Shown here in pieces: positions 21-2,024 of a DNA stretch of 64,000 nt (the stretch's first letter is position 1; each line of letters opens with the position of its first letter). The translations under genes were made by a program, and so were the position numbers. This DNA comes from Justusliebigvirus alia. The stretch lies in the sequence record OZ035799.1; one strand, given 5' to 3'. The notes beneath the pieces are model-generated. The model ran no database searches. It was given only the letters and a program-made list of their open reading frames with translations, and was not told where the DNA came from.

Positions 21-2024
21 ATGGATCTTATGCCTGAAGTAATGATTTATGGTGGTGCGGCAGGTTGTGTTTCAGCAGAAACAGAATACCTAACAAGAGA
101 CGGTTGGAAACAAATAAGTGAATATGATGGTGAGGATATTTATCAATACAATCCAAGAAATAAACGTCTTGAATTAGTTACACCATCTTTTGTAGAATAC
201 GATGCTAAAGATAATCTGTATTGTATCACAAACGGAGTAGGTGTCTTCCAAGAATTAAGTATGGAACATCGCTTTGTTTTCTACAAGAAGAAAAAATCCA
301 AAAAACATTTTGAAATTCTTGTTGGGGATCTTATTGCACTACAGCAAGCAGGACACCCATTACGAGGATATATTGAAAACCCTTTTGGTAAACGTGTTCC
401 GTTTAACATTCAAGGTAAACCTAGCACATACCTAAAAATTCATGAGGTAATGACAAGTGATGATAAGAAATATTGCTTTGAAACTCCAAGCAGTTATGTC
501 GTGTTTAGACGTGGCGATCACATCTTCGTTACTGGGAATAGCGGCAAAAGCCGTCTGCTACTTCTAAAGGCACTTAAATACGCATATAAAGATCCCCTGT
601 TTGGTGGTATTCTTTTCCGTAAAAATACAACAGCTTTGCGTAAATCTGGTGGTTTGTTTACTGAAGCTAAAAAACTTTATCTACCATTAAAGCCTCACGT
701 AAGAGAACAGGCTATGGAGATGGAGTTCAGAGCCACAAAAGGTGGTACACTTAAATTTGACCATCTTGAAAATGATAACGTAACTGCTGAAACTAACCAT
801 CAAGGTACACAGTATTCGATGGTGGGGTTTGACGAACTTACACATTTTACACAATATGAAATGCTATATCTGTTAGGGCGTATGCGTTCTGAATCAGAAA
901 CGTCTTTTATGCTGTGTACTTGTAACCCTGATGCAGATAGTTGGGTGTTAAAGTGGGTACTTCCTTATTTGGATGAAGCTGGTTATCCACGAGAAGATAT
1001 GTGTGGCAAACAGCTATACTTTCTTATTGTGCAAGATGAACCAGTATTTGCTGAAACAGCAGAAGAGTTGAAAGAAAAGTATCCTGAAAACTGTTTTATG
1101 CAAAACCCAAACACAGGTGAAACAGTGGTTATTGAACCACAAACATTTGTGTTCATTGGTGGTACTATCTTTGATAACCCTGAACTAATAAGACTTAACC
1201 CTAAATACTTAGCTTCTTTGAAGGCTCAAACCGCCGTTAAGAGAGCACAGCTTTTAGATGGTTGTTGGTTTGCTCGTGCACAAGAAGAGAGTTTCTTTAA
1301 CAGAGAATGGTTACACGTTATCAAGTTTAAAGATTTACCAAACAATCTTAAATATATGCGAGCGTGGGATAAAGCAGTATCTGTTCCAACAGAATCTTAT
1401 CGTTATCCTGACTACACAACATCTGTTAAAATGGCTAAAGACTCTGATGGAAATTATTACATTTTTGGTGATTATGATTATGATGCTCACGATGAAGGTA
1501 GTAAAATTTTTGGTAGATTCAGAAGACTACCAGGTGATCGAGATAATTTAATTCTAAACCAATGTAAGATTGATGGAGATGAAGTTACAGTTGTATTACC
1601 AAAAGATCCTTCTGGTGCTGGTTTGATTGAATATACAGAATCAGCTAAAAAACTAATTGCTGAAGGGTTTGTTGTTAAACCAGATGCTATGCCTGGTAAC
1701 AAGAAAAAATTACAACGCTTTATGCCATTTAGTAGTGCTTGTCAAAATGGTTTTGTTTATATTGTAGAAGAATCTTTCCCTAATAAAGAAACTCTTGATC
1801 ATTTCTATAAAGAGATGGAGTCATTTAATGGAGAAAGATCTACGGCAACATTAAAAGATGATATTCCAGATGCTGCTGCATCTTGCTTTAATACTTTGTC
1901 AAAAGAACAGATGTTTAAAGCAGTAGCAATACCTTCTGCAACAAATGCATTAACAGGGTACGGTAAGATGGGTGGAAGATCAAGAAACTCTTTATCTTCT
2001 CCATATAGTATCAGAGGAAGATAA
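21..2024 (+). CDS. terL: Terminase large subunit, 5'-partial (frame is open to the window start), interrupted by an intein
   Basis: Walker A reads GGAAG-[158 aa insert]-SGKS, which becomes a canonical GxxxxGKS P-loop once the insert is removed. Walker B-like VGFDE follows. First gene of the morphogenesis block, directly upstream of the portal. No stop codon in frame between position 3 and 21. Confidence 0.8.
   Translation: MDLMPEVMIYGGAAGCVSAETEYLTRDGWKQISEYDGEDIYQYNPRNKRLELVTPSFVEYDAKDNLYCITNGVGVFQELSMEHRFVFYKKKKSKKHFEILVGDLIALQQAGHPLRGYIENPFGKRVPFNIQGKPSTYLKIHEVMTSDDKKYCFETPSSYVVFRRGDHIFVTGNSGKSRLLLLKALKYAYKDPLFGGILFRKNTTALRKSGGLFTEAKKLYLPLKPHVREQAMEMEFRATKGGTLKFDHLENDNVTAETNHQGTQYSMVGFDELTHFTQYEMLYLLGRMRSESETSFMLCTCNPDADSWVLKWVLPYLDEAGYPREDMCGKQLYFLIVQDEPVFAETAEELKEKYPENCFMQNPNTGETVVIEPQTFVFIGGTIFDNPELIRLNPKYLASLKAQTAVKRAQLLDGCWFARAQEESFFNREWLHVIKFKDLPNNLKYMRAWDKAVSVPTESYRYPDYTTSVKMAKDSDGNYYIFGDYDYDAHDEGSKIFGRFRRLPGDRDNLILNQCKIDGDEVTVVLPKDPSGAGLIEYTESAKKLIAEGFVVKPDAMPGNKKKLQRFMPFSSACQNGFVYIVEESFPNKETLDHFYKEMESFNGERSTATLKDDIPDAAASCFNTLSKEQMFKAVAIPSATNALTGYGKMGGRSRNSLSSPYSIRGR
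66..539 (+). mobile_element. Mini-intein (Hint domain, no homing endonuclease domain) inside the terminase P-loop
   Basis: The insert starts with Cys (CVSAETEYLTRDGW, block A-like), ends with Asn (HIFVTGN), and is followed by Ser as the +1 residue. It is 158 aa and in frame. Excising it restores GGAAGSGKS. Confidence 0.6.

Follow-up and report, generated by a model that had tools for sequence, protein, structure and literature searches.

The locus analysed here raises a simple question. How does a phi92-like phage of E. coli (Justusliebigvirus) obtain a working large terminase (TerL) when 158 codons interrupt the Walker A loop of the gene? We studied this gene within a 64-kb stretch of DNA (hereafter, the window). 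A preliminary description of the sequence had proposed that a 158 aa insert, starting with Cys and ending with Asn, splits the loop, and our reading of the ORF gives the same layout. The insert lies at positions 66-539 of the plus strand (474 nt, in frame 3) and is in frame with the rest of the gene, without a stop codon. The TerL ORF reads ...VMIYGGAAG, then Cys (TGT, 66-68), 156 residues up to the Asn of a closing T-G-N (ACT 531-533, GGG 534-536, AAT 537-539), then SGKS (540-551). It is open at the left end of the window, the phi92 protein starting 61 nt upstream, and phi92 TerL is identical to the window protein across residues 22-694. In phi92 numbering, the insert spans residues 43-200. 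The protein was assigned to TerL by PHROG 979 (E=3.3e-221). The Pfam match to Terminase_6N (E=9.4e-17) starts immediately past the insert, and Terminase_6C gives a weak match. The intein has a GC content of 35%, and the C-extein one of 36%. The features of the locus are the following.

3-65, plus strand: N-extein fragment of TerL, residues 22-42, ending in GGAAG (51-65); codons 1-21 precede the window.
66-539, plus strand: mini-intein of 158 aa and 18.4 kDa, with a predicted HINT fold and without a homing endonuclease domain (AF2, Foldseek, family profile, homologues, dN/dS).
66-68, plus strand: Cys1, invariant among the aligned family members (165/165).
258-275, plus strand: block B core Ser65-Met-Glu-His68-Arg69-Phe70 (B:7, B:10, B:11, B:12), in register with S65, H68, R69, and M70 of AceL NrdHF.
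474-476, plus strand: Cys137 of KYCFETPSS, occupying position 4 of block F, where class 3 inteins have their branch point; Cys in 163/164 members.
531-539, plus strand: end of block G, with Thr156 (G:5), Gly157 (G:6, replacing the usual His), and Asn158 (G:7, the putative cyclising residue), aligned to T144-G145-N146 of AceL NrdHF.
540-2024, plus strand: C-extein of TerL, with Ser+1, SGKS (540-551), the remaining ATPase domain, the nuclease domain, and the stop codon at 2022-2024 (Pfam, PHROG).

Intein-free homologues reveal the shape of the loop without the insert. The Walker A motif runs straight through in the TerL of Vibrio phage K408 (VMIYGGSAGSGKSRLLL), of rV5-like phages (GGAAGSGKS), and of Felix O1-like phages (GGAAGAGKT). 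In the window it is split into GGAAG and SGKS on either side of the insert, and removing the latter restores GGAAGSGKS, as had been anticipated. The N-extein aligns with the segment QPGKQ...VMIYGG[AS]AG of the K408 protein. Among K408-like TerLs the intein is present or absent at this site, and the exteins are 79-87% identical and gapless over the junction (BLASTP of in-silico spliced proteins against K408). A MAFFT alignment of five TerLs misplaced the short N-extein; we therefore located the junction by visual inspection, and the BLASTP comparison of in-silico spliced proteins confirmed it. The comparison with intein-free terminases, which the preliminary description had recommended, locates the insertion point to the exact residue.

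The insert is predicted to have the fold of an intein. The AlphaFold (AF2) model, computed from a shallow alignment of 18 sequences, has a mean pLDDT of 91.8 and a pTM of 0.86, and consists of a single HINT domain with one short helix. All Foldseek matches in the PDB at E<=1e-3 were inteins or BIL domains, with 6ZGQ at the top and Hedgehog just below this threshold. The block A-like start (CVSAETEYLTRDGW) is present as described earlier, and so is the lack of a homing endonuclease domain, the 158 aa comprising one predicted HINT domain and matching no endonuclease family. This length falls within the ~130-200 aa of an intein reduced to its splicing domain. The intein HMM search proposed as a check was negative: there was no match on the 158 aa in Pfam at E<=1 or in NCBIfam at E<=10. 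The search of 20 homologues of the insert with Pfam gave no significant HINT or intein match, and a single sub-threshold match to Hom_end_hint (in homologue P0136). The single-sequence phmmer search of the PDB returned chance WW-domain-like matches alone (E>=0.05) and no intein. Among the sequence models tried, the sole route to a known intein was a clade-specific profile. Built from 16 sequences of the family, it matched the AceL NrdHF intein (6ZGQ) over nearly the full length (E=1.7e-12), and this was the only solved structure matched. The alignment is in register at Ser65, His68, Arg69, Cys137 (F:4), Thr156, Gly157, and Asn158, and HMMER pairs Cys137 with residue 124 of 6ZGQ (C124A in the crystal).

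The insert belongs to a large family. An exhaustive search of representatives identified homologues that fall into at least 734 clusters when grouped at 50% identity. The search with the intein alone had retrieved five close fragments only, and we used instead a query made of N-extein, intein, and extein, and the search of representatives. The clade is hosted by RecD-like, ResIII/DEAD, and SNF2 helicases, TerL, AAA ATPases, MetK, and Toprim proteins, and the Pfam match of the host picks up again just past the intein. Further matches to the insert were seen in phage RtcB, RecD-like, and PhoH-like proteins. The same element thus resides in unrelated host proteins, a mark of mobility. The insertion precedes GK[ST] in 122 of the 164 members analysed, the typical site being G|[S/C/T]GK[S/T]. 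The residue at -1 is Gly in 149 of these members, and the one at +1 is always Ser, Cys, or Thr (164/164). The boundary is defined to the single residue, and the module recurs with identical ends at this Walker A position in those 122 homologues; chance is not a credible explanation for the insert. Within the 64-kb window we found a single copy of the family.

The putative catalytic positions are conserved in this clade. Cys1 is found in all 165 aligned members, across many 50%-identity clusters, His68 never varies, and Ser, Thr, or Cys occupies position 65 throughout (165/165). The C-terminus is [T/S]GN in all 164 members analysed (134 TGN and 30 SGN). Position F:4 is Cys in all but one of 164, the exception (P0227) keeping Cys1, and B:12 is Val, Phe, Ile, or Met (Phe70 in the phi92 TerL intein). 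The residues that define intein junctions are all in the insert or next to it: Cys1, Ser65-x-x-His68, Asn158, and Ser+1. The predicted fold, the distribution of the family, the presence and absence of the element among close exteins, and the conserved splice-junction residues agree with the mini-intein suggested at the outset. On these grounds, the insert is a genuine HINT-fold mini-intein. It was previously unannotated, and we found no database or literature source calling it an intein.

How the element came to this site can be outlined from the same data. Most clade members (139/164) are 189-599 aa long, usually 300-350 aa, with weak matches to LAGLIDADG_3, and among these are three alleles at the same TerL site. 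Since the majority of the clade has a central domain of LAGLIDADG size, the phi92 TerL copy is probably an endonuclease-less derivative. The ancestor would have been a LAGLIDADG-bearing homing intein targeting G|[S/C/T]GK[S/T] of P-loop NTPases; the endonuclease would since have been lost, and the intein would now be passed vertically with terL. The insert is fixed in every phi92-like and Phapecoctavirus phage examined (133 phage records). The dN/dS is 0.055 for the intein and 0.065 for the extein, with dS saturated, and the amino-acid identities between phi92 and ESCO5 run parallel (88% and 87%, respectively). By these measures, the intein is under purifying selection equal in strength to that on its host gene. 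Separately, terL of some sister phages is interrupted at another position by a group I intron.

The closest characterised homologue, the AceL NrdHF-1-1 intein, comes from a phage-like contig of the Ace Lake metagenome (PDB 6ZGQ; Hoffmann et al. 2020, PMC7891396). It splices with a half-life of ~3.8 min, and its essential nucleophile is C124 (PMC7891396). The two inteins are only ~19% identical in sequence. Both are small HINT domains (146 aa in AceL NrdHF, 158 aa in phi92 TerL) with Thr6, Ser65, His68, and Arg69 at the same numbers, a hydrophobic non-Trp residue at B:12 (Met70 in AceL NrdHF), Cys at F:4 followed by Pro at +4, a Thr-Gly-Asn end, and Ser+1. Both lack the block F His and the penultimate His. 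They differ at position 1, which is Ala in AceL NrdHF, a proven class 3 intein, and an invariant Cys in the clade of the phi92 TerL intein. They also differ in architecture, since AceL NrdHF occurs in nature as two halves separated by a GIY-YIG gene and interrupts a ribonucleotide reductase, whereas the phi92 intein is contiguous, endonuclease-free, and placed in the Walker A of TerL.

This relative informs the interpretation of the C-terminus. The preliminary description had noted the Gly-Asn end, which we also observe, and had suggested that it may affect the splicing rate. The latter suggestion does not hold up: the [T/S]GN end is common to the whole clade and to the fast-splicing AceL NrdHF. 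Judging from this conservation and from the analogy, the Gly-Asn end is a signature of the clade and not a sign of weak or slow splicing. A penultimate His is frequent in inteins without being required. In AceL NrdHF, the G145H mutation abolishes activity and Arg69 was proposed to compensate for the missing His (PMC7891396). According to an excerpt of the published account, the class 1 intein of gp51 (RDF) of mycobacteriophage Bethlehem also has a penultimate Gly and splices completely, and G316H slows its splicing. Like the phi92 TerL intein, it is a phage intein ending in Gly-Asn; it differs in its host protein, its full length, and its active endonuclease, and no F:4 Cys is reported in that excerpt.

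We propose that a self-splicing mini-intein very probably interrupts the P-loop of TerL and that DNA packaging depends on its splicing. The gene would encode a 79-kDa (79.2-kDa) precursor with a Walker A loop split into GGAAG and SGKS, which for this reason should not bind ATP. The HINT domain would fold and leave as an 18.4-kDa protein, joining Gly42 to Ser201 and producing a 60.8-kDa TerL with an intact GGAAGSGKS. The predicted junction peptide of the spliced protein is ...VMIYGGAAGSGK and the predicted tryptic peptide across the junction is QTLAMDLMPEVMIYGGAAGSGK. Since the P-loop would be intact only after excision, packaging would require splicing.

Other fates of the insert fit the data much less well. 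Removal of the segment as an RNA intron, or its bypass during translation, could be considered in view of the group I intron of some sister phages, and is scarcely conceivable here: the ORF is uninterrupted and in frame, conservation is at the protein level (dN/dS 0.055), and the HINT fold is predicted with confidence. We rejected an RNA intron since the Rfam search of positions 1-2200 of the window was empty, even at E<=0.1. A BIL-like or decaying HINT domain, cleaving at one or both ends without ligation, would leave TerL in pieces or non-functional. BIL domains are indeed among the top structural matches and the penultimate His is absent. Yet BILs lack a conserved +1 nucleophile, which is invariably Ser, Cys, or Thr in this clade and led us to reject this option; unligated cleavage would yield a 42-aa fragment and a TerL without P-loop, the intein is present in one copy only in the 64-kb window, and selection on it equals that on the extein. 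We regard this reading as extremely unlikely. It is also very unlikely that the insert is a domesticated, non-splicing HINT domain kept in the mature TerL in a structural or regulatory role. Its fixation in all the phi92-like and Phapecoctavirus phages examined (133 records), the loss of the endonuclease, the purifying selection resembling that of the host gene, and its escape from curated intein models would suit such a role. However, 158 residues would then stay inside the phosphate-binding loop, keeping GGAAG apart from SGKS, and the residues for splicing (Cys1, Ser65, His68, Cys137, Thr156, Asn158, and Ser+1) have all been kept. Moreover, the same module occupies the equivalent loop of many unrelated enzymes, close exteins exist without it, and its nearest homologue, AceL NrdHF, splices in minutes. 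We thus rejected a decaying or domesticated insert on the basis of selection and of the conserved catalytic residues.

A last alternative accepts a functional intein and concerns its chemistry. [quoted passage not shown] This route has arguments in its favor. AceL NrdHF, a proven class 3 intein, has the same S65/H68/R69, Cys at F:4, Thr at G:5, and Gly-Asn, and Cys137 is kept in 163/164 clade members. A +1 Ser or Thr, found in 76% of the clade, is a class 3 trait, and as early as 2010 three WCT inteins had been noted that start with Ser or Cys. Canonical class 3 inteins with the WCT motif (MP-Be DnaB, Msm DnaBi1, Mch DnaB1) share with the phi92 intein Cys at F:4 and Thr at G:5, and with its clade a majority of Ser/Thr at +1, a preference for the P-loops of helicases and terminases, and a proposed phage origin. 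On the other hand, they lack an N-terminal nucleophile, carry Trp at B:12, and in most cases have a penultimate His, where the phi92 intein has Cys1, Phe70, and Gly157. They are only distant Foldseek matches to the insert (rank 40 or lower) and are absent from the sequence-profile matches. The absence of a nucleophile at position 1 is part of the definition of class 3, and the conservation of Cys1 in 165/165 members is difficult to account for if it has no role. We therefore rejected plain class 3 membership, and we consider a pure class 3 route rather unlikely.

The TerL mini-intein thus has a mixed catalytic make-up. At position 1 it has the Cys with which a class 1 intein forms the linear (thio)ester, a role that is putative here, and at F:4 it has Cys137 in place of the Asp typical of that class. 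Its class 3 features are the Cys at F:4 and the Thr at G:5, whereas it has neither a nucleophile-free position 1 nor Trp at B:12. As read from its aligned members, the clade combines class 1 and class 3 nucleophiles. By homology, the N-terminal scissile bond would be strained by Ser65 and His68, the N-extein would be taken as a thioester by Cys1 and/or Cys137 and then handed to Ser+1, and the cyclisation of Asn158 would be aided by Arg69 and not by a penultimate His. Because both cysteines are essentially invariant, we favor, with low confidence, a route starting at Cys1 in a class 1-like manner, with Cys137 as a class 3-like relay or coordinator. Either cysteine alone might suffice, given that P0227 lacks the F:4 Cys but has Cys1. 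By analogy with the active site of AceL NrdHF, the two thiols should lie near each other. We tentatively suggest that the clade (Cys1, Cys F:4, Thr G:5, Gly-Asn) may splice via a two-thiol relay, from Cys1 to a branched thioester on Cys137 and then to Ser+1. Alternatively, it may represent the intermediate long postulated to link a standard phage intein with those class 3 inteins that lost the N-terminal nucleophile. In this same tentative vein, the two thiols could form a redox-sensing disulfide.

Inteins at the terminase P-loop are already well known in phages, and what is unusual here is the catalytic make-up. Mycobacteriophage TerL P-loop inteins (TerL1-a, TerL1-b) are common and were shown to splice, and they are predicted to keep the terminase from binding ATP and from assembling into pentamers as long as they are not excised (Kelley et al. 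2016, PMC5050341). Like the phi92 TerL intein, they sit in the Walker A loop of the ATPase domain of the large terminase. Their classic site is GK|T, between the invariant Lys and Thr, whereas the phi92 site is three residues earlier, at G|SGKS. They interrupt terminases of the Terminase_1 type and several have active LAGLIDADG endonucleases, whereas the phi92 extein is of the Terminase_6 type and its intein has none.

These results matter for the study of phages, as terL is a standard marker for their phylogeny and annotation. An unannotated intein of 474 nt skews alignments, quality checks that rely on length, and predicted structures, and the group I intron of some sister phages adds to this distortion. 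The phages affected include widely used therapeutic and model coliphages (phi92, BASEL Bas60-63, and ESCO phages). According to one recent paper, no inteins have been reported in coliphages, and in the BASEL table a phage with an identical TerL is entered with 0 inteins. More broadly, a clade of at least 734 clusters was missed by the curated intein models that we tried (Pfam, NCBIfam). Its active site has features of both class 1 and class 3, and the one relative studied so far, a split intein of class 3 that splices fast, is of interest to biotechnology. Because the host phage grows on E. coli K-12, genetics can address directly whether splicing is needed and what each cysteine does. If the two thiols do pair, a Cys1-Cys137 disulfide could make the maturation of the terminase, and hence DNA packaging, redox-sensitive.

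The terL ORF lies on the + strand in frame 3, is open at the window's left edge and has its stop at position 2024. The window covers the beginning of a phi92-like myophage genome, with 100% identity to Justusliebigvirus alia OZ035770.1 and 99.3% to phi92. The ORF translation is interrupted in the Walker A motif as follows.

Up to the Cys codon at 66, + strand: end of the N-extein, reading …QPGKQTLAMDLMPEVMIYGGAAG
66-68, + strand: TGT, Cys, first residue of the insert
531-539, + strand: C-terminal end of the insert, …HIFV-Thr-Gly-Asn, reached 156 residues on from the Cys
540-551, + strand: Ser-Gly-Lys-Ser following the insert

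The insert spans 474 nt (158 codons), in frame and with zero stops. Since terL of phi92 starts 61 nt upstream of the window's left end, and residues 22-694 of phi92 gp119 are identical to the window TerL, the insert corresponds to TerL residues 43-200. The computed masses are 79.2 kDa for the precursor, 60.8 kDa for the in-silico spliced TerL, and 18.4 kDa for the insert. The first 21 terL codons are absent from the left end of both the window and the public record OZ035770.1, which begin 61 nt inside the gene. The ORF listing begins terL at an internal ATG at position 21, and the true start codon lies elsewhere.

The preliminary description proposed that excising 66-539 gives back a canonical loop, and indeed GxxxxGK[ST] is restored, as in uninterrupted TerL homologues. 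More than a thousand phage TerLs match the in-silico spliced N-terminal part (tblastn), and several span the junction in one piece. The suggested comparison with intein-free terminases confirmed the insertion point: the TerLs of Vibrio phage K408 (VMIYGGSAGSGKSRLLL), of rV5-like and SSE121-like phages (GGAAGSGKS) and of Felix O1-like phages (GGAAGAGKT) are unbroken across the junction. This point, G/SGKS (slashes mark junctions), is three residues upstream of the "classic" GK/T site. At the identical site, metagenomic TerLs close to that of K408 have a relative of the insert, 146 aa long; without it they align gap-free to the intein-free K408 TerL at 79-87% identity. The TerL site is polymorphic for presence and absence among close host genes, as expected of a mobile element.

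The intein model search suggested at the outset came back empty: the 158-aa insert has no match among Pfam and NCBIfam models, and a single-sequence search of PDB sequences returned noise only. An AlphaFold2 model of GGAAG-insert-SGKSR, built from a shallow alignment of 17 allelic homologues, is nearly all β-strand (mean pLDDT 91.8, pTM 0.86). Its leading Foldseek matches in the PDB are HINT domains only, with the class 3 split intein AceL NrdHF (6ZGQ) first, BIL domains next, followed by numerous inteins and the Hedgehog autoprocessing domain. A 16-sequence clade profile also matches 6ZGQ (E=1.7e-12, positions 6-152). Model and profile together argue strongly for a HINT-fold intein, one that is missed by standard models.

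HMMER, run exhaustively against 1.84 billion representatives, returned 734 clusters at E<=1e-3 (117 at E<=1e-10), of which the best 150 were inspected; signature counts come from 164 delimited hits. Most matches consist of a ~75 aa N-terminal and a ~45 aa C-terminal stretch, the pattern that an intein split by an endonuclease domain would produce. Position 1 is Cys in every delimited hit (165/165 aligned sequences), the consensus start is CVDxDTE[YF]L[ST]PxGW, and Glu7, Trp14 and His68 are invariant, with Ser, Thr or Cys at position 65. The sequence of the C-terminal block is DG[FY]KYCFxVPSxxLVLRRNGxIF[IV][TS]GN, with Cys at block F:4 in 163 of the 164 and an end in TGN (134) or SGN (30). Position +1 is occupied by Ser (86), Cys (39) or Thr (39), and position -1 by Gly in 149. 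The remaining F:4 residue is the Gly of homologue P0227 (775 aa, insert 419-651; …VYGVEVPSS…TITGN/S), which keeps Cys1; if functional, this scaffold would be able to splice without the F:4 thiol.

The motif [SCT]GK[ST] follows the intein in 122 of the 164 hits, which places the element inside the Walker A loop there. The element sits in unrelated hosts (RecD-like, ResIII/DEAD and SNF2 helicases, terminases, AAA ATPases, S-adenosylmethionine synthetase, Toprim proteins), and in each type the host Pfam domain picks up right after it. Matches to the N-terminal half extend in cultured phages to inserts in RtcB, RecD-like and further TerL proteins, and to a PhoH-like PHROG. The family also occupies glycine-rich loops other than Walker A, namely GVDIG/CG in RtcB-like proteins (PHROG 32482; RtcB of Bacillus phages BCP8-2 and JBP901) and GGGAF/SGKD in S-adenosylmethionine synthetase (MetK-like P0139, P0142, P0168). 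These sites suggest recognition of a short G/[SC]G rather than of P-loops as such. Most elements (139/164) exceed 180 aa (189-599 aa, mostly 300-350 aa); the other 25 are minis (140-173 aa). Long forms at the identical TerL site (P0015, P0021, P0026) have borderline LAGLIDADG_3 matches. Such relatives and their P-loop sites point to the phi92 element being a derivative, by endonuclease loss, of a P-loop-targeting homing intein family. The 64-kb window yielded no second copy of the family.

Three other readings of the insert are each very improbable. A domesticated, non-splicing insert would keep 158 residues inside the phosphate-binding loop and leave the conserved junction chemistry unexplained. 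A BIL capable of cleavage only is at odds with the invariant +1 nucleophile, and an RNA intron with both the absence of an Rfam match and conservation at the protein level.

The chemistry of the insert can be compared with that of AceL NrdHF, its nearest characterised relative. Both share the numbering of the N-terminal half (Ser65, His68, Arg69), a hydrophobic, non-Trp B:12, an F:4 Cys with Pro at +4, and the junction Thr-Gly-Asn-Ser. They differ at position 1, which is Ala in AceL NrdHF, whereas the phi92 clade combines Cys1 (165/165) with Cys F:4 (163/164). In AceL NrdHF, Ser65 and His68 distort the scissile bond, Arg69 touches the C-terminal scissile carbonyl and is a proposed stand-in for the absent penultimate His, and Cys124 (F:4) is the obligate nucleophile, which with Ala1 makes it class 3; it splices with a t1/2 of ~3.8 min at 37 °C, and G145H abolishes activity (PMC7891396). 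In a class 1 phage intein with penultimate Gly, the G-to-H change slows splicing (PMC5050341). By this comparison the Gly-Asn end, noted at the outset as one that may affect splicing rate, is no sign of slow splicing: the feature is clade-wide, AceL NrdHF is fast, and G-to-H changes are harmful, so that by analogy this end would be a design feature of the clade and no defect.

Both Cys1 and Cys F:4 are invariant or nearly so, and hence both are argued to matter. Our preferred guess is that splicing would start at Cys1 and then relay via Cys137 (F:4); pure class 3 and pure class 1 chemistries are possible. Because Cys1 is present, the element falls outside class 3 by the operational definitions of the literature, and it is atypical for class 1, with F:4 Cys instead of Asp, G:5 Thr and a G:6 residue other than His. 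The clade unites signatures of class 1 with those of class 3. That the phi92 intein uses a real variant chemistry is a tentative proposal, and we consider it rather unlikely.

The intein occurs in 133 phage records, from Justusliebigvirus, Phapecoctavirus and related Klebsiella phages, with amino-acid identities of 72-100%. Between phi92 and ESCO5, intein and extein have similar dN/dS (0.055 and 0.065; dS ~1.6-1.8) and amino-acid identity (88% and 87%); against Klebsiella phage 05F01 the identities are 72% and 69%. Together with the matched GC (35% in the intein, 36% in the C-extein), this argues for an old, vertically inherited resident, under sequence constraint equal to that of the essential enzyme it interrupts. 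The records of "Campylobacter phage A110a/A150" (MG065689.1, MG065639.1; matches H38, H58, H59), with C. jejuni as listed host, have a terL ~99% identical to that of E. coli phi92-like phages and an identical intein; the records either name the wrong host or derive from contaminating coliphages.

That TerL ATPase domains, and notably P-loops, host inteins is textbook knowledge. TerL is the commonest intein host in mycobacteriophages (PMC5050341). The kind of element is already known and its novelty is modest. Neither Pfam nor NCBIfam detects the clade, and no intein annotation for phi92-like TerL was found in the records and sources examined, where labels read "terminase large subunit" or, at best, "with N-terminal endonuclease domain". 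According to a 2024 paper that covers a phi92-like isolate, no inteins have been reported from coliphages, and the BASEL supplementary table gives 0 inteins for Bas61, the terL region of which is 99.4% identical to the window in DNA. In the BASEL S5 Table (PMC8594841), the phi92-like PaulScherrer (MZ501100) is credited with 2 inteins plus 1 intron, and EmilieFrey with 0. Their terL regions are each 99.4% identical to the window in DNA, and the TerL CDS of EmilieFrey is annotated at full, intein-containing length. Evidently, the BASEL count omitted the terL intein, and the phi92-like group has further inteins.

Salmonella phage UAB_1, "Campylobacter" A110a/A150, cardinal and PD114 carry an extra ~970 bp terL insertion that is absent from the window.

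1663-2638 in UAB_1 (L007), equivalent to window ~1162/1170: extra insertion, within the conserved TerL motif FIGG/TIFDNP

An HNH homing-endonuclease ORF lies within this insertion, which scores 45.8 bits (E=3.6e-10) with the Rfam group I intron model RF00028, narrowly missing the gathering score of 50. In these phages, annotation splits terL into two or three genes.

In phi92-like phages, TerL would be synthesised as an inactive precursor whose P-loop is split, intein excision would restore the GGAAGSGKS loop, and DNA packaging would hinge on this excision. Mycobacteriophage TerL inteins, which are efficient at splicing, have been argued to impose the same dependence (PMC5050341). In phages with the ~970 bp insertion, terL would require RNA splicing plus protein splicing.
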